A program made the position numbers and the translations under genes. A stretch of 64,000 nucleotides of DNA, from contig CAWBZV010000002.1 of NCBI GenBank assembly GCA_963793305.1, forward strand, positions 192,001 through 256,000, written 5' to 3'. The stretch's first letter is position 1, and every line of letters starts with the position of its first letter. This DNA comes from an uncultured Gemmatimonadales bacterium. Its GTDB lineage: Bacteria; Gemmatimonadota; Gemmatimonadetes; Gemmatimonadales; Gemmatimonadaceae. Below are positions 32,009 through 47,111 of this stretch, piece by piece. The notes beneath the pieces are model-generated. The model made no database searches. It had not been told where the DNA came from and saw nothing but the letters and a program-made list of their open reading frames with translations.

Positions 32009-34831
32009 ATGTCCGAAGAATCGCTGGTCATCCGTGGCGCGCGCGAGCACAATCTCCGCAACATCAATGTGACGATTCCGCGCGACCGGCTGACCGTGAT
32101 CACGGGGCTGTCGGGATCCGGAAAATCGTCCCTGGCGTTTGACACGATCTATGCCGAAGGCCAACGTCGGTATGTCGAATCCCTCTCGGCCTACGCCCGA
32201 CAGTTCCTCGGGCTCATGGAAAAGCCGAATGTCGACTCGATCGAGGGCCTGTCGCCAGCGATCTCGATCGAGCAGAAGACCGCCGGGCATAACCCCCGTT
32301 CAACAGTAGGGACCGTCACGGAGATCTACGACTATCTCCGTCTCCTGTACGCCCGTGTCGGCACCCCACATTGCGCGAGCTGCGGGCGGCCCGTCGAGCG
32401 GCAGAGCGCCGGTCAGATCGCCGAGATCGTTCTCGCCTGGCCGGCCCGCACGCGCATCGAGGTCCTCGCGCCTCTGGTCCGTGGACGGAAGGGCGAATTC
32501 CGCGAATTGTTCGACTCGGCTCGTAAGCAAGGGTTCGTTCGCGCCTACGTCGACGGCGACCTGATCGAGCTGGCCAATCCACCCAAGCTCAACCGCCGCC
32601 AGAATCATAGTGTGTCGGTGATCGTCGACCGCTTGGTGGTCGAAAACAAGGATCGCGGTCGTCTCGTCGACTCGCTCGAAACCGCCCTTCGTCTGGCCGA
32701 TGGCCTTGTGGAAGTCTCTCGCGCGGACACCGCCGAAACTCAAATCTTCTCGGAGAAGTACGGCTGTCCGACCTGCGGCATTGCGCTCGCGGAGCTAGAG
32801 CCTCGCCAGTTCTCATTCAACTCGCCATTCGGGGCCTGCCCGGCGTGCAGTGGGCTCGGTACCAGACGTGAGGTCAGCGAGGAGCTCATTCTCGGTGACT
32901 CGAGCATCTCGCTATTGGAGGGCGTGATTCTGCCATGGGGCGAGCCCGATGGGTATCTGCGCAAAGTCATCCTGCCGGGGCTCGCCAAGCGCTTCAAGTT
33001 CGACCTGAACACCCCGTGGGGAAAGCTGCCGCCCTCGGTGCAGCACGTGTTGCTGCACGGGGCGCCGAGTGGTGACGCGACGAAGTGGGAAGGCATCATC
33101 GCGAATATCCAACGTCGCCATGATGAGACCGAATCGGACACGATCCGGATGGAGCTGGCGCAGTACATGGTTGGCGTTCCGTGTTCGGCGTGCGCTGGTC
33201 GCCGACTCAAGCCAGAGTCGCTCGCCGTGACCATCGCCGATCGCAATATTGGCGAAGTCACGGAGTTTTCAGTCGCCGATGCCGATCGGTTCTTCGACAC
33301 GCTGACGCTCAGGCAATCGGAGATCGCGGGGCCGATTCTCAAGGAGATTCGCGAGCGCCTGCGGTTCTTGGTTGATGTCGGCCTGGATTATCTCACGTTG
33401 AATCGCTCCGCCGAATCCCTGTCCGGTGGCGAGGCACAGCGCATTCGCCTCGCGACGCAGATCGGTTCGCGGCTGGTGGGTGTGCTCTATATCCTCGACG
33501 AGCCGTCGATCGGCCTGCACCAACGCGACAACGCCCGTCTGCTCGCGACGCTGGCGCGACTCCGCGATCTCGGCAACTCGGTGATCGTCGTCGAGCACGA
33601 CGAAGAGACGATGCGCGCCGCGGACTATCTGCTGGACCTGGGCCCAGGCGCCGGGAAGCACGGCGGACTCGTGGTCGCCGAGGGCTCGATCGCGGATATC
33701 ATGAACAACCCGGATTCACTCACGGGAAAGTATCTGTCCGGCATAGTATCGATTCCCGTGCCGACCGTTCGGCGCCAGTTCGATACAGCGCGCGTGCTCC
33801 GGATCGCCGGCGCCCGCGAGCACAACCTTCGCGACATCACGGTCGACATCCCCCTCGGCTGCTTCGTCGCCGTCACGGGCGTCTCGGGTTCGGGCAAGTC
33901 GACACTGGTCGAGGATATTCTGCATCGCTCGCTGGCCCGGCATTTCTATCGCGCCCGCGTGATCCCCGGCGCATATGATCGTATCACGGGGCTCGAGCAT
34001 CTCGACAAAGTGATCGACATCGATCAGAGCCCAATCGGCCGAACGCCGCGCTCGAACCCAGCGACCTACACCGGACTGTTCACACCAATCCGCGAGCTCT
34101 TCGCCGAGATGCCGGAGGCGAAGATTCGTGGCTACGGCCCGGGTCGATTTTCATTCAATGTGAAGGGTGGCCGTTGCGAAGCGTGTCAGGGCGACGGTCT
34201 CGTGAAGATCGAAATGCATTTCTTGCCGGATGTGTTCGTCCCGTGCGAAGTGTGCAAGGGCAAGCGCTTCAATCGCGAGACGATGGAGGTACGATTCCGC
34301 GGCGCGAGCATCGCCGATGTGCTCGACATGACGGTCGAAGACGCCTGCGAGTTCTTCGCGAATCAACCGCGCATCGCGCAAAAGTTGGAAACCCTGCGCG
34401 ACGTCGGTCTCGGCTACCTGCACTTGGGCCAGAGCGCGACGACGCTTTCCGGTGGCGAAGCCCAGCGCGTCAAACTCGCCACCGAGCTCTCCAAGCGCGA
34501 CACGGGTCGCACGTTCTATATCCTCGATGAGCCAACGACGGGATTGCATTTCGAGGACGTGCGACTGTTGCTCGATGTCCTGCATCGCCTGGTCGATCGG
34601 GGCAACACGGTCCTCGTGATCGAGCACAATCTGGACGTCATCAAGACGGCCGACTGGATCATTGACCTCGGGCCCGAAGGGGGATCGCGCGGTGGCGCGG
34701 TCATCGCGACGGGCACACCCGAGGAGGTCGCGGCGACGGCCGCGTCCTACACGGGCCAGTACTTGCGGCCGTTGTTGGACCGCATACCGGTCGGCGCCGT
34801 CAACGGAGCATGGCAACGCCGAGCAGGATAG
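32009..34831 (+). CDS. uvrA: Excinuclease ABC subunit A
   Basis: [16 protein letters not shown], two LSGGEAQR signatures, zinc fingers. Confidence 0.98.
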
Positions 34832-35663
34832 CGCCGACGCCGGCCCACTGGCGCCGCGTCAGCCGCTCGTCGAGCACGACGCGCGCGAGCACCACGGTGA
34901 CGCCGCTGGCCAGCGATGAGAGCACCGTGACGATGGCGATGTGACCCGTGCGGAGTCCGGTCGAGTACGCGATGTAGCCGAGCACACCACAGGTGCCATG
35001 GACGAGCAACAGCGCGCGCAGCGTCGGAGCCGGGAGTGCCAGGCTGTGGCCGCGTGATAGCGCGATGGCGCCGGCGGCGAGCGCGCCGGCTCCGTAATAG
35101 ATCCAAACGGGGAGCGCCCACCCGAGCTTCGGCACGGCGAACGCGCCGATGAGCCAGAAGCCGACGCCGAACGCCACGGCGGAGTAGATCGCGGGCCCAA
35201 GTCCCGGCATTGCCGATGCCGGCGCCGCGCCGTTCACGCGTTCGGGCGTGGACGTGCAGGCGACGCCGAGGATGGTGACCATGAGTCCGCCGATGGCGAC
35301 GGCACCGAGGACTTCGCCGGTGGCAACCGACAGGATCATCGTGACCGCGCCGTAGCTCGCCGAGATCGGAGCGACGATCGAGACGACGCCGACGGTGATC
35401 GCGCGATAGAGACAGAGCGTGCCACTCAGCACGATGGCCGATCCAAGGAGCGCCGCGGCCCACGCCGACCACGGAGCAGTCACCGCAAATCCGCCCGGAC
35501 TGGCAATGAGCCACACACTGATGAGAACGAAGGCGGTCGTCTGCGTGAAGAAGACCGTTCGCAGGACCCCGACCCCGCGCCCGGTGAACCGGGCCAGGAG
35601 GTCAGCCGCACCCCATGCGCACGCGGCGAGCAGCCCGAGTATTACACCAGTATATGACCCCAT
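34800..35663 (-). CDS. EamA/DMT family transporter
   Basis: About 10 TM helices; [26 protein letters not shown]. Confidence 0.85.
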
Positions 35664-35701
35664 ACCGGTAATATACATAATACTGGTGTTATATTGATAG
35701 G

Positions 35702-36268
35702 GTGTTCGAGTACATCAGCGGCGACATGGCCGCCGACCTCGTCAACGCCGGCGAGCGCCTCAGTGATTATGGCCAGCTCCTCGAATGGGCCCAAGGGGCT
35801 GGGGCTACTTCAGCCGCAGCTGCTGAGCGTTTGAAGATGGTGGCCCGGGCGAAGCCCGCAGAAGCGGCCGCCGCACTCCGAGCCGCGCATCGGCTTCGGG
35901 ACATCATTCACGACGTATATGCCGCGGTGATCGCCGGCCGCTCGCCCGACCTCGCCGCTCTCAACGGCGAGCTCTCGCGGGTGCTCCCGCGACGGCAGTT
36001 GGAGGGCAACCATTGGATATGGCTCGGCGCGGACCGCGATCTCGAATCGCCGTTGTGGCCCGTCGTCCTCGCGGCGGCGACGCTTCTCACGTCTCCGGAT
36101 GCCGCCCGACTCCGGATCTGCGCCCAGCAGGACTGTGGGTGGATGTTTGTCGATCGGAGCCGCAACGGATTCCGGCGATGGTGCTCGATGGCCGACTGCG
36201 GGACCCGCGAGAAGTCGAGGCGTCGCGCGGCAAAACAAAGCGCAAGCGTTGCTCGTAGAGCCCCGTAA
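35702..36268 (+). CDS. ABATE/CGNR zinc-finger domain protein
   Basis: ADLVN; CAQQDCGWMFVDRSRNGFRRWCSMADCGTR. Confidence 0.88.
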   Translation: MFEYISGDMAADLVNAGERLSDYGQLLEWAQGAGATSAAAAERLKMVARAKPAEAAAALRAAHRLRDIIHDVYAAVIAGRSPDLAALNGELSRVLPRRQLEGNHWIWLGADRDLESPLWPVVLAAATLLTSPDAARLRICAQQDCGWMFVDRSRNGFRRWCSMADCGTREKSRRRAAKQSASVARRAP

Positions 36269-36283
36269 CGTCTATTATCGTCT

Positions 36284-36688
36284 ATGGTCACCCGCGAAGA
36301 CATTGAGAGCTTTCTCGACCGCCTGAGCGCCGAAGGGGCGAGCTACAGCGAGGTCGAACCGGGGCTCTGGATCGTTAAACCCAATGGCGCCCTCGATTTG
36401 GACGTCGTGGTCCACTACTCGCCGCCGGTAGTCGTCTTACGTGTGAAGGTGATGAACCTCCCGCGCGACGAGTCGGCGTCGGGACACCTGGCCAGGCGCT
36501 TACTACAGTTGAATGCAACCGATCTCGTCCACGGCTCGTACGGTATAGAACGGGAAAATGTCGTGCTCACCGAGGCGCTGGAGCTCGGCTCTTTGGACTT
36601 CGACGAGTTTCTCGCGGCGTACGAGGGTATGACGCTGGCGCTCGGTGCTCATTTGAAAGAGCTCGGCGCCTACCGCGACGGGCGCTGA
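36284..36688 (+). CDS. YbjN/CesT-like chaperone-fold protein
   Basis: LLQLNATDLVHGSYG motif; directly upstream of pspA. Confidence 0.7.
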   Translation: MVTREDIESFLDRLSAEGASYSEVEPGLWIVKPNGALDLDVVVHYSPPVVVLRVKVMNLPRDESASGHLARRLLQLNATDLVHGSYGIERENVVLTEALELGSLDFDEFLAAYEGMTLALGAHLKELGAYRDGR

Positions 36689-36703
36689 CCTCAGGACGCA
36701 TCC

Positions 36704-37495
36704 ATGGGCCTTTTTGATCGCTTATCAACGCTGCTCAAATCGAACATCAATGATCTCATCTCCTCGGCGGAAAACCCCGAGAAGATGCTCAACCAGATCA
36801 TTGTCGACATGCGGTCGCAACTCGTCAAAGCGAAGCAGCAAGTCGCGACCGCGATCGCCGACGAGAAGCGCCTGCATGACCAGGCCGACACCGAATTCCG
36901 GCAGGCCGAGGATTGGGAGAAACGGGCCGTGCTCGCCGTGCGCGAGTCGCGCGATGACCTGGCCAAGCAGGCTTTGGTTCGCCAGTCCGAGCATCTGCAG
37001 CACGGGCAGGTCCTCCAGCAGACGTGGGAGTCCCACCGGCTGGAGACCGAGAAGCTCAAGAACTCGCTGCGCGATCTGAACGACAAGATCGAAGAGGCGA
37101 AGCGCAAAAAGAATTTGCTCATCGCGCGTCAGCGCCGGGCCCAGGCTCAAAAGCGCATTGCCGAGACGATGTCCGCGCTGTCCGAGAAGTCGGCCTTCGA
37201 GGCGTTCGCCCGGATGGAAGAGCGCATTGAGCAGAGCGAGCGCCAGATCAAGGCGTCGACCGAAATCGACGAGGAGTTCACTGGCGATCGCCTGGCGAAG
37301 GACTTCAAGCAGCTCGAGGTCTCGGCCACGGCATCCAACGCCGACTCTCAGCTCCTGGCGCTCAAGCAGAAAATGGGAATGCTCGGTTCCGGTGCCGCGC
37401 CCGACAACCGGCAGCTCGGCGCCGGTGAGGTCGCGCACGAAGAGATCGTGCATGATGCCGAGGTCGAGACACCGGACCCTAAGAAACCGGCTTGA
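36704..37495 (+). CDS. pspA: PspA/IM30 family protein
   Basis: MGLFDRL..., ENPEKML, RDDLAKQAL, AFARMEERI. Confidence 0.92.
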   Translation: MGLFDRLSTLLKSNINDLISSAENPEKMLNQIIVDMRSQLVKAKQQVATAIADEKRLHDQADTEFRQAEDWEKRAVLAVRESRDDLAKQALVRQSEHLQHGQVLQQTWESHRLETEKLKNSLRDLNDKIEEAKRKKNLLIARQRRAQAQKRIAETMSALSEKSAFEAFARMEERIEQSERQIKASTEIDEEFTGDRLAKDFKQLEVSATASNADSQLLALKQKMGMLGSGAAPDNRQLGAGEVAHEEIVHDAEVETPDPKKPA

Positions 37496-37595
37496 ATACA
37501 GCGACCGCTGCGCGGTCGACTGCTCAAGCCGCGCCCCGACTGCTTCACGCTCCGTACCCCGGTTCAGACGCCGATGACAATGGCAGGGAGCCGGT

Positions 37596-38823
37596 GTGAC
37601 CACTGACGGACGCCATACCGTGAGCGCGGCAGCCACGCAGAAGCCAGTCCGGATCGCGCCGATCCTGACGGCCGTGGTCCTCACGGGCCTGCTGCTCTGG
37701 ATGTTCCTCAAAACATCCGATGTCTTCCTGCTGCTCTTCCTCGCGACGCTGTTAGCGCTCTACCTCGGCGCCGTCGCCGATTTCATCGCGCGCCGCACGC
37801 AGCTCCCCCGCCCGATGGCATTCGGGCTCGGCGTAGTGCTCACGCTGTCGGTTGGCGCAGGCATCGTCGGCCTGCTCGTACCGCCAGTCGTGCAGCAGTC
37901 GCAAGAGCTCTTCGGTCTCGTTCCATCGACCGTGAGCGCCTTGCAACGCGAGATCGCGACCCTCTCCGCGAAATTCCCAGGGCTGGCCAAGCAAATCGGC
38001 CCCATTCAGGACCAGGTCCTGAATAACCTACCGGGCCAGATCTCGGCCGTCGTCGGCGACGTCGTCCCTCGCGTCTTCTCGGTGCTGGAAGCGATCACTA
38101 TCCTGTTCACCGTTCTCATCATGGGGATCTACCTGGCACTCGAGCCAGCGGTCTACCGCGAGTGGGTGATCGCGCTCTTCCCTCCGCTCCATCGCGACCT
38201 GGTCCGCGACATCCTGACCGACATGGGCTCCAAGCTGCGCGACTATATCGTCGCGCAGCTCCTGACCATGGTGATCCTCGGCGCCCTGACCGCCTTGGGC
38301 CTCTGGGCGATCCACGTCCCGTTCTGGCTGACGTTCGGTGTCCTGAGCGCGGTTGCCGCAATCATCCCGGTGTACGGTGTGCTCCTGTCGACGGCCGTTC
38401 CCGCGCTGTTCGTGATCAGCCAGCCGAACGGACTCGTTCGCGCGGCGCTCGTGCTCGGCCTCGGCGTCTTGATCCACGTCATCGAGGGCAACTTCGTCGC
38501 GCCGAACATCATGTCGAAGCGCGTCGATCTGCCGCCGGTCCTGACGATGTTGGCCGTGCTGATCTTCGGCGAGCTCCTCGGTCCGGTCGGTTTGCTCGTG
38601 TCCGTCCCATTGCTCGTCGTGATCATGGTGCTCGTCCACCGCTTGCTCGTCGCGCGGCTCTACGAGGGGCGCGGCTTCCGTCGCGCGCGCCGCGATGGTC
38701 CGATCACCGTGCGCGTACCGGCGGCCGAGGGTGGTGGCAGCGGTATTGCCGTCTCGGCGTATGATGGCATGCCGCTCGAACGTCATCGCGTTATCCGAGC
38801 GAGCGCGAGCCGGTCCCAGCTAG
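37596..38823 (+). CDS. AI-2E family transporter (frameshift at 38778-38784; corrected stop 38823)
   Basis: IIPVYG, IEGNFVAPNIMSKRVDLPP, LLGPVGLLVSVP. Confidence 0.85.
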
Positions 38824-38848
38824 CGATCGATAGCGATGGCGCGCGTCG

Positions 38849-38887
38849 TGGCGTGATGACGGGCTTCGTCCCGCATCACGCCATTTT
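38849..38887 (+). terminator. Intrinsic terminator-like or 5' leader hairpin
   Basis: TGGCGTGATG-A-CGGG/CCCG-CATCACGCCA stem followed by TTTT. Confidence 0.5.
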
Positions 38888-38916
38888 CGTCTCCGACCAT
38901 TTCACAAGGAGACGTC

Positions 38917-39108
38917 ATGAACAAACTCGCCCTCGCCCTCTGCTTGGCCACGAGTCTCGTCGTAGCGCCGGCCGCGCCGGCTCAATCGTGTCTCGTTTCA
39001 TCGTTCAGTAGTTGTGGCGGGACATTCTCCGGCGCAGACTGGTTCTGGGTCGCGCTGCAGGACTACTGTGGGTGGACCCGGTTCATCCTGTGCGATTTCG
39101 GTTTCTAG
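38917..39108 (+). CDS. Small secreted Cys-rich peptide (twin CX7C)
   Basis: AAGGAG RBS; 22-aa signal peptide ending A-P-A; 41-aa mature part with 4 Cys. Confidence 0.7.
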   Translation: MNKLALALCLATSLVVAPAAPAQSCLVSSFSSCGGTFSGADWFWVALQDYCGWTRFILCDFGF

Positions 39109-39443
39109 CCGAGCGCGGCATCGCGGCGGCGCTGCTCGCGGCCGGCATTCTGTTGCCGGTAGCAGCGCTCGCCCGCCGGCGCACCGGTCCGCCGACCGCG
39201 CTCCTGTTCGTGAGCCGCGGGTGCGCTCGCTGTCTGGCCGCGGCCGCGCAGTTCGACTCGATGACGACGCGGCGCGGCGTCCGTGCGGTTCTCGTCGTCG
39301 ACTCCGGGAGTTGGGCCACGGTCGCGCCGCACGTGCTGCTGACCCGCGACTCGGGGCACGCTCTCGCGCGCGCACTGTCCATTCGCGCGGTCCCCGCGTT
39401 GGTCTCGATCACCGCGGTCGTGCGCTACGACTTCGACCGATGA
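39090..39443 (+). CDS. Membrane-anchored thioredoxin-like protein
   Basis: TM, then LLFVSRGCARC and a cis-Pro-like loop IRAVPALV. Confidence 0.6.
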   Translation: MRFRFLAERGIAAALLAAGILLPVAALARRRTGPPTALLFVSRGCARCLAAAAQFDSMTTRRGVRAVLVVDSGSWATVAPHVLLTRDSGHALARALSIRAVPALVSITAVVRYDFDR

Positions 39444-40036
39444 CGCGCATCCTCTCGCTCCGTGCCATCCGGAAATCGTACCGGAGCGGCATACCAGGCT
39501 GCTCGGCCGCCGTGCGCGTGCTGCGCCGCGTCGATCTCGACGTCGTGCCCGGCGAAGTCGTCGGGATCGTCGGCGGGCCGGGCTCGGGGAAGTCGACGTT
39601 GCTGCTCTGTGCCGCGGGCCTGCTCCGTCCCGATGCCGGCACGGTCGAACGTCCGCGGGACGGGACGTACGTCTCGGCGCTTCCGCCGGCCTATCACTGG
39701 ATGGCGGTGCTCGACATGGTCGCCCTCTTGACGCGCTTGCCACGCCCCACGGCGATTCGCGAGTCGCTGGATCGCGTCGGGCTCGGCGGTGATCTCGCTC
39801 GTCCGGTCGGCACACTGTCGAGCGACGCGCTGGCGCGACTCCATGTCGCGTTTCTCCTCGTTACCATGCCGGTGCTCGCCCTCATCGATGGACCGATCTC
39901 GGCGCTCATCGGGTTGCTGCCGCCTGCTGGTGTCACGGTCATGGTCGCGGCGCGGGACGCCCGCGCGGTCGAGTCGCTCGCGACACGCGTGGTTGTGCTC
40001 GCCGACGGCATGGCGCGCGGGGCGGTGCGCAGGTGA
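39440..40036 (+). CDS. Degenerate ABC ATP-binding protein
   Basis: Walker A GGPGSGKST intact; signature LSSDA, Walker B LIDG. Confidence 0.75.
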   Translation: MTRILSLRAIRKSYRSGIPGCSAAVRVLRRVDLDVVPGEVVGIVGGPGSGKSTLLLCAAGLLRPDAGTVERPRDGTYVSALPPAYHWMAVLDMVALLTRLPRPTAIRESLDRVGLGGDLARPVGTLSSDALARLHVAFLLVTMPVLALIDGPISALIGLLPPAGVTVMVAARDARAVESLATRVVVLADGMARGAVRR

Positions 40037-40617
40037 TATGGCTGGCGCTCGTTGCGCATGCAGGATCTGGCTTCGCCCTGCTCGTCACGCTTTCGGCACG
40101 GCTGCAGCCAGCGTTGCTTGCCACCGCTCACCCTGGCCATTCGCTGGCGCTCGAGCCGGGACTTCGCATGCTACTCATCGCCTATGCGTCGACGCCTCGG
40201 TTGACGGCCATCCCCATGGCGGCGGTTGCCTGGCTGCGCGCTGGCCGAATGGGTCGTGAGCGCACCGAGTTTCGCCGATGGTTTGGCGCCGGGTTCGTGG
40301 TCCTCGCCGCCGAGTCGGTGCTCCGGGCATTGGCGGCGCTGGGCGTCCACGACGCGATGACGCCGGCAACATGGGCGGCGAAGCTCCGGCCGCCGTTACC
40401 GATTGTTTCGGCAGCGGTCACGATGATCGTCGCCGGCATGTGTTGGGCACTGGCGTTGAGAGAAGCGACGGCGGCTCGGCGCGGGTCTGCCGACGGACCG
40501 GACGTGTGGGACACCCAAGACGCGGCCGCCGCGATGTGGTGGACGGGCGCGATCGCCATTGCCGCGTCACACCTCGTCGCGCCGCTCGCTGTCGCGTTCG
40601 TTCTGCGCCTCGGTTAG
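40033..40617 (+). CDS. Multi-pass membrane protein
   Basis: About 5 hydrophobic segments; GTGA overlap with the ATPase. Confidence 0.55.
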   Translation: MIWLALVAHAGSGFALLVTLSARLQPALLATAHPGHSLALEPGLRMLLIAYASTPRLTAIPMAAVAWLRAGRMGRERTEFRRWFGAGFVVLAAESVLRALAALGVHDAMTPATWAAKLRPPLPIVSAAVTMIVAGMCWALALREATAARRGSADGPDVWDTQDAAAAMWWTGAIAIAASHLVAPLAVAFVLRLG

Positions 40618-40631
40618 CTTGTGACGCTCCG

Positions 40632-42087
40632 ATGCCGTCTGCGCCACCCTTCCTTCTGTACGACACGATGTTGCGCAGGGTCGAGCCGTTCGCTCCGGCG
40701 GACGGGAAGACCGTGCGCCTCTATACGTGCGGCCCCACGGTCTACAACTTCGCGCACATCGGAAATTTTCGGACGTTCTTGTTCGAGGATCTCCTGCGTC
40801 GGGCGTTCGAACTGCGCGGTTGGGATGTCGATCAGGCGATGAACCTGACGGATGTCGAGGACAAGATCATCGCCAAGGCCGTGAAGGAGCGAGTCACGAT
40901 CGGCGACGTCACGGCGCCGATGATCGTGCAGTTCTTCAGGGACCTGGACTACCTCAAGATTCAGCACGCCGAGCACTATCCGCGGGCGACTGAGTACATC
41001 CCGCAGATGATCGCGCTGGTCCAGAAGCTCGAGGAGCGCGGCATTGCGTATCGCGCGGACGATGGCTCGGTGTACTTCGCGATCCAGCGGTTTCCGTCGT
41101 ACGGCCGTCTCTCGCGACTCGACAAGCGCGAGCTCAAGCCCGGCGCTCGGGTGTCCAGTGACGACTACTCCAAGGAAAACGCCGACGATTTCGCCTTATG
41201 GAAGGCGGCCAAGCCCGAGGATGAGCAGACGGGCGCCGCATGGGATTCGCCCTGGGGGCGCGGGCGCCCGGGCTGGCATCTCGAGTGCTCGGCCATGGCG
41301 ATGTCGATTCTGGGGCAGACGCTCGATCTCCATTGCGGAGGGATCGATCTCATCTTCCCGCATCACGAGGACGAGATCGCCCAGTCGGAGGGCGCGACCG
41401 GGGTGACCTTCGCCCGGCATTGGTGCCACGGCGAGTTTTTGCTGATGGAGGGGGCGAAGATGGCGAAACGGGTCGGCAACGTTGTCACCGTTGCCGACTT
41501 GCAAGCCGAAGGGATTCCGGCGGCGGCCGTGCGGCATTCTCATCTACAACACGCATTACCGGCAGGTGCTGAACCTGACGGACGAAGGTCTGGAGGCATC
41601 CAAGGCCGCCGTCATGCATTTGGCTGAGCTCGCTGAGCGTCTGGATTCGCCTATGCCAGGCAGCGGTACCCCGGCCATGGCGACCGCCGTCGCCGAGCTC
41701 GAACAGGGTATTAGAGAGGCGCTGTTCGACGACCTGAACGCTCCGCGTGCACTCGCTACGGTGTTCAACTTCGTTCGGGCGGCCAATGCCGACCTCGACC
41801 GTAAGGGCGGCGATGCTTCGGCTATCTCCCAGGCCCGCAACGGTCTCCAGTTCATCGAGACGACGCTCGGCATCGTCCCGCCCAAGCGCTTAATGGGTAT
41901 CTACCCGCCGCAGCACGACGGCGCTGACGAGGTCACCCAGTGGGTGAACGCCCGGTTGGCGGAGCGAGCGGCCGCCAGAGTCGCCCGGGACTTCGCCAAG
42001 GCCGATGCCATACGGGATGAGCTCGCTACAAAGGGTGTCCAAATCAAAGACTCGGGCGTCGGGACGACGTGGAAGAAAGTCAGTTAG
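40632..42087 (+). CDS. cysS: Cysteine--tRNA ligase (frameshift at ~41538)
   Basis: YTCGPTVY, HIGN, PGWHLECSAM, FPHHEDE, KMAK, DDLNAP, ADAIRDEL. Confidence 0.96.
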
Positions 42088-42119
42088 CGTAACCCTGTAA
42101 CGATCGATCTCTTAACACG

Positions 42120-42148
42120 TTGACACTCGTTCACCAGTCGAGTATTGT
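42120..42148 (+). promoter_or_regulatory. Sigma70-type promoter of the tRNA-tuf operon
   Basis: TTGACA (42120-42125), 17-nt spacer, TATTGT (42143-42148). Confidence 0.75.
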
Positions 42149-42171
42149 ACGGGCTCGCGCAAAATTGCTGT

Positions 42172-42244
42172 GCTGACGTAGCTCAATTGGCAGAGCAGCT
42201 GATTTGTAATCAGCAGGTTGCGAGTTCAAGTCTCGCCGTCAGCT
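42172..42244 (+). tRNA. tRNA-Thr(TGT)
   Basis: Cloverleaf; anticodon arm GCTGA-TTTGTAA-TCAGC. Confidence 0.95.
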
Positions 42245-42290
42245 CTCTGGAACACGTCAGTGCGGCTCTTTGCGTGGGTAAGTAGCTCAC

Positions 42291-42373
42291 GGTGGGGTAC
42301 CCAAGTGGCCAACGGGAGCAGACTGTAAATCTGCCGGCGTATGCCTTCGAAGGTTCGAATCCTTCCCCCACCA
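42291..42373 (+). tRNA. tRNA-Tyr(GTA)
   Basis: GCAGA-CTGTAAA-TCTGC, long variable arm, GGTTCGAATCC. Confidence 0.95.
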
Positions 42374-42385
42374 TTCGCGGGGGAC

Positions 42386-42458
42386 GCGGGAGTAGCTCAG
42401 TTGGTAGAGCGCAAGCCTTCCAAGCTTGATGTCGCGGGTTCGAGCCCCGTCTCCCGCT
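42386..42458 (+). tRNA. tRNA-Gly(TCC)
   Basis: GCGGGAG/CTCCCGC acceptor; CAAGC-CTTCCAA-GCTTG. Confidence 0.95.
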
Positions 42459-42586
42459 TGTCGAGGATGCAGGAGCTGGAGCTGATGTTGGGCACAAAGA
42501 CACGCGAGACGCGCAGCACGAGGAGTCGAGCCAAGGCGAGACGACATCTAATAGGACAGAGCTACGCGAGAGTTTGCGTAGCAAAC

Positions 42587-42659
42587 GCTCGCGTAGCTCA
42601 GTCGGTAGAGCGCACCCTTGGTAAGGGTGAGGTCATCGGTTCAATCCCGATCGCGAGCT
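42587..42659 (+). tRNA. tRNA-Thr(GGT)
   Basis: GCTCGCG/CGCGAGC acceptor; CACCC-TTGGTAA-GGGTG. Confidence 0.95.
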
Positions 42660-42696
42660 TGGACGTAGGACACTTAACACTGGACGCAAATTAGTC

Positions 42697-43890
42697 ATGG
42701 CAAAGGCAAAGTTTGAGCGGACGAAGCCGCACGTAAACGTGGGAACGATCGGGCACGTCGACCATGGAAAGACGACGTTGACCGCGGCGATAACGCTGGT
42801 CCAATCGGCAAAGGGATTGGCCCAGAAAGTTGCGTTTGATCAAATCGATAAGGCGCCGGAAGAGCGCGAGCGTGGAATCACGATCGCGACGGCGCATGTA
42901 GAGTATGAGAGCGACAAGCGGCACTATGCGCACGTCGACTGCCCAGGTCACGCCGATTACGTGAAGAACATGATCACGGGTGCTGCCCAGATGGACGGCG
43001 CCATTCTCGTGGTCAGCGCCGCTGACGGCCCGATGCCGCAGACGCGCGAGCACATCCTGCTCGCCCGTCAGGTCAACGTGCCGTTCATCGTCGTGTTCAT
43101 GAACAAGGTCGATTCCGTCGACGATCCAGAGCTGCTGGATCTCGTCGAGCTCGAGGTCCGCGAGCTGTTGAGCGCGTACAACTTCCCAGGCGATGAGATC
43201 CCGGTGATCCGTGGCTCGGCGCTTAAGGCGCTCGAGAGCGGCGACCCGAAGTCGGAGTGGGGTGCCAAGATCGGCGAGCTGATGACCGCCTTGGATTCGT
43301 ACATCCCGATTCCGAAGCGTGAAGTCGACAAGCCGTTCCTGATGCCGGTCGAAGACGTGTTCTCGATCACGGGCCGTGGCACAGTGGCCACCGGTCGTAT
43401 CGAACGCGGCAAAGTCAAAGTCGGCGAAGAGCTCGCATTGATCGGATTCAACTCCGACAAGAAGACGGTCGTTACTGGCGTCGAGATGTTCAGAAAGCTG
43501 CTCGATGACGGCCAGGCTGGCGACAACGTCGGACTGCTTCTGCGTGGACTGGGCAAGGAAGATGTCGAGCGCGGGATGGTGCTGGCGAAGACGGGTTCGA
43601 TCACGCCGCACACGCACTTCGATGCGGAAGTCTACGTGCTGACCAAGGAAGAGGGCGGGCGGCACACGCCGTTCTTCAAGGGCTATCGTCCGCAGTTTTA
43701 TTTTAGAACAACGGATGTCACGGGAAGCGTTGAGCTCCCCGCGGGCACCGAGATGGTCATGCCGGGCGACAATATCCAGATGGCCATTGAGTTGATCACA
43801 CCGATCGCCATGGACGAGGGTCTGCGGTTCGCCATTCGTGAGGGTGGCCGGACGGTCGGCGCCGGTGTCGTCACCAAAATCATCAAGTAA
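42697..43890 (+). CDS. tuf: Elongation factor Tu
   Basis: [21 protein letters not shown]. Confidence 0.99.
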
Positions 43891-43896
43891 ATCGCC

Positions 43897-44049
43897 ATGC
43901 CTCGCGAGAAGATCATCCTAGCGTGCAACGAGTGCAAAAACCGCAACTACTTCACCACGAAGAACAAGCGCACGCATCCCGAGCGCGTCGAGTGGAAGAA
44001 GTATTGCCCGCGGTGCAACAAGCACCACGTGCATAAGGAAACCAAGTAG
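43897..44049 (+). CDS. rpmG: 50S ribosomal protein L33 (zinc-binding form; below the ORF-track cutoff)
   Basis: [50 protein letters not shown]. Confidence 0.95.
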
Positions 44050-44050
44050 C

Positions 44051-44314
44051 ATGGCCGTCGACGTGGCGCGAGCGGGTGAGGCCAAGGAAAGCTGGTTTGC
44101 GCGGGTCGGCGCGTTCGTGCATTCGATCCCGTCGACCTACCGGGCCATCGTCAACGAGATGCGCCGGGTGACCTGGCCCAGCGTTGAGGAGATTCGGCAG
44201 TTATCGGTGATGGTGGTGGTCTTGTCGCTCTTTATCGGCGCCGTGATCGCCGTGATGGACGTGACCTTTCAAGCGATCTTGGTGCGATGGATTCCGCAGC
44301 TGTTCGCACGTTGA
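44051..44314 (+). CDS. secE: Preprotein translocase subunit SecE
   Basis: EMRRVTWPS + TM; lies between rpmG and nusG. Confidence 0.92.
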   Translation: MAVDVARAGEAKESWFARVGAFVHSIPSTYRAIVNEMRRVTWPSVEEIRQLSVMVVVLSLFIGAVIAVMDVTFQAILVRWIPQLFAR

Positions 44315-44316
44315 GC

Positions 44317-44859
44317 ATGGAGCATCGCTGGTACGCGATTCAGACGACCGCCGGACATGAGAACAAAGTCCGGTCGCTGATTCAGCGGAAGATCGAGATG
44401 GACCCGGCTGCCGCCGAGGTCCGCTCGATCCGCCAGGCGTTGGTCCCGACGCAGGAAGTCGTCGAGATCAAGAATGGCAAGAAAGTGAATGTGGAACGGA
44501 AGATGTACCCTGGGTATGTGCTCGTTGAGATGGTCATGAATCAGGAAACGATTCATACCATCAACGGCATCCAAGGGGTGATCAAGTTCGTCGGGCATGA
44601 TCGGCTGCCGCAGCCGCTCCGGCCCGACGAGGTCAATCGGCTCCTCGGGATCGCGACTGATGCCGAGCCAGAGGAGCCGAAAGAAGAGATTCCGTTCCTG
44701 GTCGGTCAGGCGGTCGCTATCACCGAGGGGCCCTTCACCGATTTCAACGGGACTGTTGAAGAGGTCATGCCGGATAAGGGCAAGGTTCGCGTCTCGGTTT
44801 CGCTGTTCGGCCGACCGACTTCGGTGGAACTCGACTACTTGCAGTTAAAGGCATACTGA
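44317..44859 (+). CDS. nusG: Transcription termination/antitermination factor NusG
   Basis: WYAIQT, YPGYVLVEM, KOW GPFTDFNG, FGRPTSVEL. Confidence 0.96.
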   Translation: MEHRWYAIQTTAGHENKVRSLIQRKIEMDPAAAEVRSIRQALVPTQEVVEIKNGKKVNVERKMYPGYVLVEMVMNQETIHTINGIQGVIKFVGHDRLPQPLRPDEVNRLLGIATDAEPEEPKEEIPFLVGQAVAITEGPFTDFNGTVEEVMPDKGKVRVSVSLFGRPTSVELDYLQLKAY

Positions 44860-45002
44860 ACGCAGGGCGCTTCGCGCCACCGCACAGGCGGCGAAGCGGG
44901 GCATGGTGTGGTTGGGTTTGGCGGGGTTTGGCAGCCGCGCACGAGCGTAGCGAAGTGCGCGCCGAGTAGGCCGTCGGAGACCACGCCGACGCGAAAAGAA
45001 CA

Positions 45003-45028
45003 GTGGGAGTCGTAGGTACGACGCTAAG
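45003..45028 (+). promoter_or_regulatory. Candidate L1-binding autoregulatory site upstream of rplK
   Basis: GGGA-GTCGTA-GG-TACGAC-GCTAA resembles the rplK leader L1 operator; expected position. Confidence 0.45.
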
Positions 45029-45040
45029 AGAGGGAGTCGA

Positions 45041-45463
45041 ATGGCGAAAAAGGTTACGGGATTCGTGAAGCTCCAGATTCCTGCGGGGCGCGCGAATCCG
45101 GCACCCCCTGTCGGCACCGCACTGGGCCCACAGGGGATCAACATCATGGCGTTCGTGAAGGAGTTCAACGCACGCACGCAGGGCCAGGATACCATCCTGC
45201 CCGTCGAAGTCACGATCTTCAGTGACAAGTCGTTCACTTTTATCACCAAGACGCCGCCCGCGGCGGTCTTGCTGAAGAAAGAGGCGGGTGTCGAGAAGGG
45301 CTCGGGCACGCCGAACAAGCAAAAGGTGGGCTCAGTCACCAAGGCGCAGATCCGCAAGATCGCGGAGATCAAGCTGCCGGACCTGAATTGCGATTCGATC
45401 GAGTCGGCCGAAGCGATGGTGGCCGGCGCCGCGCGGTCGATGGGCATCGAGGTCAAGGGCTGA
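45041..45463 (+). CDS. rplK: 50S ribosomal protein L11
   Basis: [19 protein letters not shown]. Confidence 0.98.
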
Positions 45464-46155
45464 TGAACACGCACGGGAAGAAGTACACGGACGCGGCAAA
45501 GCGGCTGCCGATCGGGGCGCCGCAGTCAGCGCACGCGGCTCTGGAGCTCGTCAAGCAGGCGGCCTTCGCCAAGTTCGACGAGACCGTCGAGGTCTCCGTC
45601 CATCTGGGCGTCGACCCGCGCCACGCCGACCAGCTCGTGCGCGGCACGGTCGTGCTGCCGGCGGGCACCGGTAAGTCGGTCCGCGTGCTCGTGATCGCGG
45701 TCGGCGACAAGGCCCGCGACGCGCAGGCGGCGGGAGCCGATTTTGTCGGCGCAGAGTACATCCAGAAGATCAAAGAGGGCTGGATGGACTTCGACGTGAT
45801 GATCGCGACCCCGGACCAGATGGGTCAGGTGGGCCAACTCGGCCGCGTGCTCGGGCCCCGTGGTCTCATGCCGAATCCCAAGGCCGGCACGGTGACGCCC
45901 GACGTGGCGAGAGCCGTGCGCGACACGAAGGCCGGAAAGATCGAGTTCCGCGTCGATAAGGGCGGCAACCTGCACGCGCCGATCGGCAAGGTCTCGTTCG
46001 CGGTCGATGCACTGCAGACGAACTTCAACGCGCTGATGGAGACGGTGGTTCGCTCCAAGCCAGCCGCCGCGAAGGGCGTGTACATCAAGAACGTCGTGAT
46101 CTCGAGCACCATGGGCCCGGGTATCACGATCGACATTACGCCCTATCGCTCATAG
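45463..46155 (+). CDS. rplA: 50S ribosomal protein L1
   Basis: [28 protein letters not shown]. Confidence 0.98.
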
Positions 46156-46157
46156 AT

Positions 46158-46667
46158 ATGAAAAAGACAGAGAAAGAAGCTCTGGTCTCAGAGCTCAAAT
46201 CGAAGATGGTCGGGGCAAAAGCCCTGTACTACACTGACTTCACGGGCTTGAACGTGAAGCAGATGACGGATTTGCGGCGCCGGTTCCGGAAGGGCGGCGT
46301 CGAGTACGTCGTTATCAAGAATTCACTGGCGCTTCGCGCCGTGAATCAAAGCGGTCTCGTGGGTACCAAGCTCAAGGGCCCCACCGGCATTGTGATTGGG
46401 AAGGACCCGGTCACGGCTGCCAAAGTTTTGACCGATTTTGCTAAAGAATTCGAGAAACCCGGGGTCAAAGGCGGGTTGCTCGATGGCAAGGTGATCGACA
46501 AGGCGCAGATAACGAAACTCGCGACGATGCCGTCGCGGGAGCAGCTCCTCGCCAACCTCGGTGCCGCGCTCCAATCGCCGTTGGCCGGATTCGCCGGCGC
46601 GCTCAACGGTGTGCTGTCCACGTTCGCCGGCGCGCTCGAGGCGTTGCGCGCCCAGCGCGAAGGGTGA
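46158..46667 (+). CDS. rplJ: 50S ribosomal protein L10
   Basis: DFTGLNV, VIKNSL, LKGPT, MPSREQLL. Confidence 0.95.
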   Translation: MKKTEKEALVSELKSKMVGAKALYYTDFTGLNVKQMTDLRRRFRKGGVEYVVIKNSLALRAVNQSGLVGTKLKGPTGIVIGKDPVTAAKVLTDFAKEFEKPGVKGGLLDGKVIDKAQITKLATMPSREQLLANLGAALQSPLAGFAGALNGVLSTFAGALEALRAQREG

Positions 46668-46700
46668 CCCTCCCCGTACTATATTTAGAGAGACGAGACA

Positions 46701-47111
46701 ATGGCTAACGCAACGCAGCTCAGCAGTGACGATATCCTCGAAGCAATCGGCAACATGTCGGTCTTCGAGCTTTCCGAGCTGATCGACAAGTTCAAGAGCA
46801 AGTTCAACGTGACCATCGCCGCCGCACCAGTCGGTGGCGCAGCGCCGGCAGCTGGCGGCGCCGGCGGTGGCGCCGCAGCAGCGGCGCCCGTCGAGGAGCA
46901 GACCGAGTTCGCGGTCACGCTCAAGGAAGCGGGTGCGAAGAAGATTCAGGTCATCAAGGTCGTGCGCGAAGTCACGTCGCTCGGCCTGAAGGAAGCAAAA
47001 GACCTGGTCGACGGCGCACCGCAGGTCGTGAAAGCTGGCGTCTCAAAGGACGAGGCGGCACTGATCAAGGCCAAGTTGGAGGAACAGGGCGCGACGGTCG
47101 AGGTGAAGTAA
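46701..47111 (+). CDS. rplL: 50S ribosomal protein L7/L12
   Basis: [27 protein letters not shown]. Confidence 0.98.

Follow-up and report, generated by a model that had tools for sequence, protein, structure and literature searches.

The window analysed here is a 64,000-nucleotide stretch of the genome of a Gemmatimonadales bacterium. Between positions 38917 and 40617 it carries four open reading frames, each overlapping the next, for a small peptide, a CxxC protein, an ABC ATPase and a membrane protein. A sequence-only reading had described this cassette, and we found the frames again at the same positions and with the same cysteine spacing. Upstream lie a ybjN-like gene, pspA and a gene for an AI-2E family transporter; cysS, tRNA genes and tuf follow downstream. 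The features are listed below, with the evidence for each in brackets.

37596..38823, + strand: AI-2E family transporter, upstream flank (Pfam; comparison with relatives)
38848..38884, + strand: GC-rich hairpin followed by TTTT, likely terminator of the pspA/AI-2E transcript (RNAfold, relatives)
38855..38887, + strand: bipartite motif of a hexamer, 21 nt and a -10-like hexamer, likely module promoter (motif counts)
38888..38914, + strand: stem pairing CGTCTCC with the ribosome-binding site (folding; conserved in the genus)
38917..39108, + strand: peptide precursor, 63 aa (ORF, profile, selection, AlphaFold2)
39090..39443, + strand: membrane-anchored thioredoxin-fold protein, about 117 aa, with CARC and V-P (HMM, homolog domains, selection)
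39440..40036, + strand: degenerate ABC ATPase, 198 aa (Pfam ABC_tran, E 1e-13; motif alignment; selection)
40033..40617, + strand: shortened Yip1-like multi-pass membrane protein, 194 aa, predicted peptide-binding partner (profile-profile comparison, Pfam, Atlas)
40632..42087, + strand: cysS, start 40632, downstream flank (Pfam)

Both flanking frames are interrupted in the assembly. The AI-2E frame reads through its true stop (TAG, 38821-38823) toward the peptide because of a single extra base, 38779, which sequencing run X1 lacks, and cysS is split by one extra base, 41537, which runs X1 and X2 lack. Since the matching runs do not contain them, both bases are likely assembly errors. An ORF and Pfam check of positions 33000-47000 found no radical-SAM or other modifying enzyme, so the absence first asserted for the cassette holds across this interval. 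No Pfam or NCBIfam model scores above threshold for the window peptide, CxxC protein or membrane protein. Between uvrA and the ybjN-like gene (34800-36268), the window and the related genome G001 carry a CGNR zinc-finger/ABATE gene and what we take to be an EamA-like transporter on the minus strand. Elsewhere in the window genome, a VKOR gene contains an in-frame stop (G000:C5:145320-145697).

The peptide ORF is preceded by a Shine-Dalgarno sequence (AAGGAG, 38906-38911). Residues 1-22 form a Sec-type signal, judged by eye and by conservation (the cleavage-site Ala is kept in at least 90% of 22 rows), and the mature part after Ala22 has 41 residues ending in DFGF, with cysteines at 25, 33, 51 and 59 (C-X7-C-X17-C-X7-C). 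The length of the frame, its ribosome-binding site, its signal and its twin-CX7C spacing are all as originally described. A loose twin-Cys pattern has 45 ORF/start matches in the window genome, so the pattern by itself proves little. An HMM built from homologs outside the window's genus, on the other hand, gives the peptide ORF the top rank of 98,372 six-frame ORFs in the genome (E 9.5e-9). Tracing the ATPase through 60 relatives led to four peptide homologs; scanning genome contigs with the single window peptide gave no match, and an alignment was needed. By profile search, the peptide is present in at least 30 of 401 genomes of the phylum, a lower bound with 14 candidates scored per genome and two of the matches weak. 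About nine chance matches at E 0.01 (L049-L056 and similar) were removed on inspection, and P0050 and P0051, which are broken or extended forms, were excluded from the peptide HMMs.

The family comprises 84 representatives at 50% identity. Exact C-X7-C-X17-C-X7-C spacing occurs in 46 of 92 family proteins, and a second group among the 92 has C-X3-C-X16-18-C-X3-5-C. Homologs that keep the Cys spacing, whose absence would have counted against the sequence-only reading, therefore exist, and 84 clusters and 92 proteins support its proposal of an undescribed family of secreted-type disulfide peptides in which the Cys spacing is conserved. Among genome contigs, 45 matches were found by pattern and 43 confirmed, all titled Gemmatimonadota save "bacterium HR33", presumably also a member of that phylum; the single named organism among 10 divergent peptide clusters belongs to the Longimicrobiales. 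The sequence comparisons thus indicate a real peptide family, seen in Gemmatimonadota only. Searches of Pfam, NCBIfam and PDB sequences with the peptide returned no family. A PagK-like identity was considered and set aside, as the Atlas leads of only 0.76-0.80 lie under the reliable range.

In 95 aligned cores, a motif precedes the second helix (R 87%, G 89%, W/Y 97%, then C, then Y 86%); this RG[WY]CY motif is replaced by QDYCG in the window peptide. Net charge is zero or negative in 93% of the 95 cores and -2 in the window core. AlphaFold2 predicts helices at residues 25-36 and 42-61 of the window peptide (mean pLDDT 73), the helical hairpin anticipated earlier, and nested disulfides would join the two helices. 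A fold search with this model gave no match above background. In some loci of the same family (L223, L224, L220-L236), the main peptides are preceded by another small Cys peptide of secreted type, marked by a YWQ-x-P..CP motif.

The CxxC protein most likely starts at GTG 39090, giving a 19-nt overlap with the peptide ORF that is identical in the related genome G003. It carries CARC and AVP motifs and is shortened relative to its family, and an HMM from homologs outside the genus places it at the top of the genome (E 1.3e-14). Its homologs match Thioredoxin_2 and AhpC-TSA; CxHC is found in 22 of 29 distinct thioredoxin motifs and Val before the cis-Pro in 25 of 29. CxHC together with Val-Pro is the signature of DsbA/PDI oxidases, and the window protein is likely a periplasmic oxidase.

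Comparing relatives shows a more complete version of this cassette. In three families of the order the genes run pspA, AI-2E, what we take to be a DUF1611-like gene 3' of AI-2E, the peptide gene or genes, an optional thioredoxin, a permease, the ATPase, the membrane protein, an optional mscS and cysS. The intact module, as read from its sequences, consists of the peptide(s), an optional DsbA-like oxidase, an ABC-2 permease, a DrrA/LanF-like ATPase and a Yip1-like protein. Among 33 peptide-first loci extending as far as cysS, the permease and the membrane protein are each present in 32 and the thioredoxin in 20, and two to three tandem peptide genes occur in 14 of 43 loci. One genome known from unpublished data (G012; L005, L032, L059, L097) is contained in alignments A1-A3 and the HMMs and is one of 20 intact loci; its type of arrangement is independently present in L116 and L220-L244. 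The module occupies a fixed chromosomal site, no copies were found on plasmids or in viruses, and in other orders the module is sited away from pspA. A second architecture, in four loci away from cysS (L070-L073), combines a shorter-spaced peptide with a six-bladed beta-propeller, a permease and an intact ATPase; no Yip1 match was found in these four. A sigma-54 activator lies upstream in one of them and short tandem repeats in two. Upstream of pspA, two families (L060-L069, L143-L185) carry tandem arrays of 2-8 small membrane proteins of 85-120 aa with coiled-coil-like tails, presumably resembling PspB-like partners. These have no Pfam match above cut-off, and the arrays are absent from the window.

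Linkage was assessed in 80 loci picked by cysS alone, from 139 genomes with a match; 65 span the interval. The peptide is present in 5 of the 65, and the thioredoxin and Yip1-like genes occur in the same five and in none of the other 60, the five coming from two genera only, so that the count is descriptive and does not amount to a statistical test. Within this sample, the oxidase-type thioredoxin is dedicated to the peptide and the membrane protein is tied to it, as the sequence-only reading had proposed. The same reading had named as a warning sign ATPase and membrane genes beside cysS without the peptide. That holds for the ATPase, a remnant of which stands in 30 peptide-free loci (all motifs kept in 2, degenerate in 28), and does not hold for the membrane and thioredoxin genes (0/60).

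The membrane ORF joins the ATPase ORF by a GTGA overlap. A same-family HMM built without the genus ranks the window membrane protein first in its genome (E 1.2e-5), and an all-family Yip1 HMM does not find it (E 75). A profile of window-type proteins matches the intact same-family profile at 96.8% (E 2.8e-10), which in turn matches that of other families at 96.1%; Pfam Yip1 is found in 5 of 40 intact members, weakly (best E 1.6e-5). The window protein itself has no Pfam match to PF04893, and its link is two profile-profile steps to proteins with weak Yip1 matches and an Atlas score of 0.95 (Yip1 on 47% of members). When the single window protein was set directly against the intact Yip1-like alignment (A9) or the permease alignment, the comparison failed. 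A fold search with the Yip1-like model found nothing above background. The shortened form is retained in 15 further clusters at 90%.

A complex prediction for the intact relative L205 (Yip1-like protein, permease and peptide) scored 0.59, against 0.01 for the best control, and replacing the Yip1-like chain brought it to 0.00; the runs share at least 93% of contacts and partner pLDDT is at least 73. The mark set for such predictions is reached by 116 of 157 solved pairs and 2 of 215 mismatched pairs, and 18 of those solved pairs and both mismatches lie at or below 0.60. The model thus lends weak support, for the L205 chains, to binding of the peptide by the Yip1-like protein. Genome G406 keeps the peptide and Yip1 without a transporter, which fits such a partnership.

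The ATPase ORF joins the CxxC ORF by an ATGA overlap. Its P-loop is kept, the signature reads LSSDA, Walker B reads IDG without the Glu, the H-loop His is missing and the Q-loop region is shortened; by its motifs, the protein is predicted to be unable to hydrolyse ATP. This degeneracy is common to G003 and G001. In intact relatives, by comparison, all 20 peptide and permease loci have the Walker-B DE and H-loop His, with Glu or Asp at the aligned Q-loop position (20/20), and 33 of 37 ATPases in peptide-first loci pass strict motif patterns, with 4 failing. What marks a LanFEG/DrrAB system, a permease of its own and an ATPase with Walker B Glu, signature and H-loop, is present in the intact relatives and missing from the window copy. 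For the intact ATPases, the best-scoring models are DrrA, lantibiotic-protection and GldA, none reaching its cut-off, and the intact permeases match ABC2_membrane_2 in 7 of 24 cases (best E 7.8e-5). Model scores class the intact ABC system as exporter-type rather than importer-type. No permease homolog was found in the window or elsewhere in the 92%-complete genome. Because the permease is absent and the ATPase lacks the Walker-B Glu, signature and H-loop, the earlier notion of an export module fails for the window copy, whose peptide carries its own Sec-type signal. On sequence grounds the window holds a reduced form of the module, without a permease and with a degenerate ATPase.

The N-terminal motif Y-x-x-G-x-x-G-C-x-A (window 39476-39505), with a conserved Cys, belongs to the ATPases of family f1 and is kept in many degenerate ATPases near cysS, even without the peptide. 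In L145, L149, L151, L152, L168, L176, L183 and L184, only the C-terminal ~70-100 aa of the ATPase are left before mscS/cysS, in some cases behind the promoter-like motif of the module; these fragments may have a function of their own.

By a simple counting method, applied to short genes of high GC content, dN/dS against L187/L188 is 0.27/0.29 for the peptide, 0.32/0.40 for the thioredoxin, 0.09/0.15 for the ATPase and 0.18/0.19 for the Yip1-like protein, with 0.04-0.24 in the flanking genes. For the ATPase, seven within-clade pairs give 0.09-0.23 and the comparison with G003 gives 0.37; over all four genes and every window pair, the range is 0.09-0.43 at dS 0.08 to >1. One close pair of signal-less peptides gives 1.18, on 6 changes. 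Values below 1 across the four genes indicate purifying selection, not a cluster of pseudogenes. This largely refutes the idea that the module in the window genus is a decaying relic, kept since its promoter and overlapping ORFs lead into cysS, and we think that reading quite improbable. It would explain the loss of the permease and ATPase motifs, the shortened oxidase and Yip1-like protein, the missing signal in sister alleles and the persistence of the promoter-like motif in peptide-free loci; the peptide, oxidase and Yip1 genes also have no coverage in RNA runs X19 and X20, which hold 6-7% of words and are uninformative. Besides selection, the Cys spacing is preserved in every allele, and the shortened Yip1 form recurs in the further clusters.

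Three allele types were distinguished among close relatives: a signal-bearing peptide with oxidase, ATPase and Yip1 (window, L187, L188, G003), a signal-less peptide with the same partners (L189, L190) and a signal-less peptide with the ATPase only (G001, L191, G005). The G001/G005-type peptides, of 35-36 aa and without Yip1 or oxidase, have a dN/dS of about 0.2. Between the window and G001/L191, identity is 96-97% over AI-2E and 95-96% over cysS, but falls to 58-60% across the peptide and 76-77% over the ATPase. In the ATPase tree, G001 and L191 group with G005 (99%); the flank tree groups them with the window (98%). These data show that the cassette has been swapped between near-identical strains. 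Across 7 signal-bearing close alleles, the mature part differs by 27% and the signal by 6%; mature pN/pS is 0.34-0.58, below 1, giving no signal of positive selection. Run X2 contains a nearly identical module in which about 10 residues differ between Cys33 and Trp53 and both Cys are kept (read by hand), and on its 3,272-nt contig at least 17 of 60 substitutions and 4 of 5 gaps, among the rows listed, fall inside 39015-39074.

Upstream of the peptide, the region 38820-38925 folds with an RNAfold z of -3.8. The hairpin at 38848..38884 shows two-sided changes in 4 of 22 predicted pairs across 9 relatives and has no Rfam match. The bipartite motif was found at 28 of 68 peptide loci, against 0.26 in shuffles, with a pattern drawn by eye and relaxed to admit the window clade (8 of the 28), which makes this first count partly circular. 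The spacer is 21 nt in 28 cases, 20 in 4 and any other length in at most 1. In 11 more loci, peptide-free ones included, the motif again lies ahead of the module's first gene, and genome-wide it is not enriched (123, against 84-125 for other spacers). It is likely the module promoter and may also feed cysS. Support for the CGTCTCC stem is weak, since it is conserved in the genus without two-sided changes. No sigma-54 consensus was found in promoter position upstream of the peptides, the 3 matches in 85 being incidental.

Adjacency to cysS and a structured leader raise the question whether the small Cys ORF senses cysteine and so adjusts cysS expression, as a leader would, and the signal-less alleles of 35-40 aa do keep four Cys. 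We consider this highly improbable: the Cys codons lie apart and form no cluster, the hairpin sits 5' of the ORF, signal peptides and Cys at helical periodicity are found in most homologs, and the second-architecture loci do not adjoin cysS. The neighbourhood of pspA suggests another possibility, that the peptide is a periplasmic accessory subunit or substrate of a Psp-linked ABC-2/Yip1 complex for envelope maintenance, with no intercellular role. The fixed site 3' of pspA in three families, the small membrane protein arrays, the conserved motif and the lack of an outer-membrane exit gene are consistent with it. We nevertheless judge it improbable, since the peptide is patchy in distribution, hypervariable and swapped among strains, the module lies away from pspA in other orders, and its promoter-like motif is its own, behind a terminator-like hairpin. 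The accessible part of a survey of Psp contexts does not mention Gemmatimonadota (PMC11237479).

Gemmatimonadota are abundant soil bacteria. Their peptide weapons and signals are known mainly through genome annotation, and the accessible text of PMC11316326 names only lasso, Nif11 and microcin-type clusters. In a search of mainly open-access literature, we found no description of the peptide family, which may still be listed elsewhere. Since it lacks a modifying enzyme and neither Pfam nor NCBIfam has a model for it, profile-based mining would miss the family. By analogy, the system would work like a disulfide bacteriocin with self-protection, yet lie outside the glycocins and the circular and leaderless bacteriocins. 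Glycocins (sublancin 168, glycocin F, pallidocin) have two helices with two nested disulfides, to which the predicted helices and putative disulfide pairing here would correspond, and a dedicated thioredoxin-like gene in the cluster, which 20 of 33 complete loci also have; judged by the accessible account, the Gemmatimonadota module differs in lacking a glycosyltransferase, a peptidase-containing ABC transporter and a fifth, loop Cys, and in having a Sec-type signal, a longer 17-residue linker and no sequence match (PMC6405829). No S/O-glycosyltransferase was found in the window or in the relatives' modules examined, and in place of a peptidase-containing ABC transporter with a cleaved leader there are a stand-alone DrrA/LanF-like ATPase, an ABC-2 permease and a Sec-type signal.

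In Bacillus, YknW is the Yip1 protein of an ABC system that protects against the disulfide peptide SDP (PMC4887032). The likeness lies in a disulfide peptide of about 40 aa and in a Yip1 protein and ABC system in self-protection. As far as that source describes it, YknXYZ is MacAB-like, includes a membrane-fusion protein and is encoded apart from the toxin, whereas here an ABC-2 permease and a DrrA/LanF-like ATPase stand in the peptide operon and two disulfides are predicted (PMC4887032). Intact ATPases approach the LanFEG model (TIGR03740 E 2e-44 and 4e-32, below cut-off) and have an acidic Q-loop residue, compared here with the LanF E-loop as described in the accessible part of bioRxiv 10.1101/2025.10.09.681468; in contrast to LanFEG, one permease and a Yip1-like protein replace LanE/LanG and there is no lanthipeptide machinery, and the window copy further differs by its missing permease and degenerate ATPase. 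Bacteriocin clusters of the leaderless and circular kinds likewise contain Yip1 proteins (PMC11580447, PMC8659200), for which immunity or transport has been suggested (PMC11580447). Those clusters resemble the module in combining small peptides, often several, with Yip1 and ABC genes; their peptides, as far as these accounts go, have no leader or are cyclised head to tail, whereas here there are a signal peptide, four invariant Cys and a net negative charge (PMC11580447, PMC8659200). No DUF95/SpoIIM match was found among the module proteins. Unlike a cationic peptide without leader, the window peptide has a signal and a charge of -2, with signal-less alleles in the genus. EntV of Enterococcus faecalis is likewise a secreted peptide whose activity needs a DsbA-made disulfide; it is set apart by description only, through GelE processing and a housekeeping DsbA (PMC6606811, accessible part).

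Taken together, the cassette likely encodes a secreted antibacterial or signalling peptide and its predicted binding partner. Our leading reading, held tentatively and at somewhat less than even confidence, is a Sec-exported, oxidase-stapled, strain-specific bacteriocin-like peptide bound by a Yip1-like protein that protects the producer. The peptide would leave the cytoplasm by Sec, the neighbouring thioredoxin-like protein would oxidise it to a two-disulfide helical hairpin, and it would act on other cells as a strain-specific antagonist, with the Yip1-like membrane protein binding it on the producer's side. The ancestral module would have relied on its ABC-2 permease and DrrA/LanF-like ATPase to remove the peptide from the membrane, in the manner of LanFEG and YknWXYZ. 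In the window genus, with the permease gone, the ATPase predicted dead and RG[WY]CY lost, a minimal peptide-oxidase-Yip1 cassette would remain, in which the ATPase kept under selection probably has a structural or regulatory role.

Several observations argue for an antagonist: a gene set like that of bacteriocin clusters (Yip1, ABC genes and a disulfide peptide), the ATPase scores against DrrA and lantibiotic-protection models with the acidic Q-loop residue, the co-occurrence of oxidase and Yip1 with the peptide, the variable mature region, cassette exchange and tandem peptide genes, and the predicted L205 complex. Others argue against it. Typical pore-forming bacteriocins are cationic, whereas these cores are anionic or neutral. 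RG[WY]CY is conserved across the order, and the module keeps to one chromosomal site, without a plasmid or viral match. In a diderm, Sec gives access to the periplasm only, and the module includes neither an outer-membrane factor nor an adaptor. The signal-less G001/G005 alleles, without Yip1 or oxidase, are still under constraint; the four second-architecture loci pair a beta-propeller with no Yip1 match; the module has no regulator; and the co-occurrence loci come from two genera.

The main rival, rather unlikely in our estimate, is a strain-specific signal (a pheromone or kin tag), secreted and oxidised, with the Yip1-like protein as receptor and the dead ATPase as cytoplasmic relay. It accounts for the anionic charge and conserved motif, the allelic cassettes with their own conserved promoter-like motif, the predicted dependence of the complex on Yip1 and the purifying selection on a catalytically dead ATPase, and the sigma-54 activator of one second-architecture locus also fits. 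The main module, however, has no kinase, regulator or second-messenger domain, its intact ABC is exporter-type, and the Yip1 precedents favour protection. A broader conjecture, which we regard as somewhat unlikely, is that anionic disulfide-stapled hairpin peptides serve kin discrimination across the phylum, being read or neutralised by the Yip1 protein, with cassette-swapped alleles and the dead ATPase as a signalling or scaffolding subunit; if true, bacterial Yip1 proteins would gain a defined ligand.

Whichever role applies, the locus offers a specific peptide-Yip1 pair for the role of Yip1 in bacteriocin clusters. The mature peptide, of about 40 residues with two predicted disulfides, is synthesisable, which makes its function directly testable, and a natural allele series with cognate Yip1-like partners is available. 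Module reduction is clearly illustrated by the series, which runs from an intact transporter through a dead ATPase under selection to isolated fragments. Separately from the cassette, the window genome also carries a canonical Yip1 gene (G000:C5:685596-686108).
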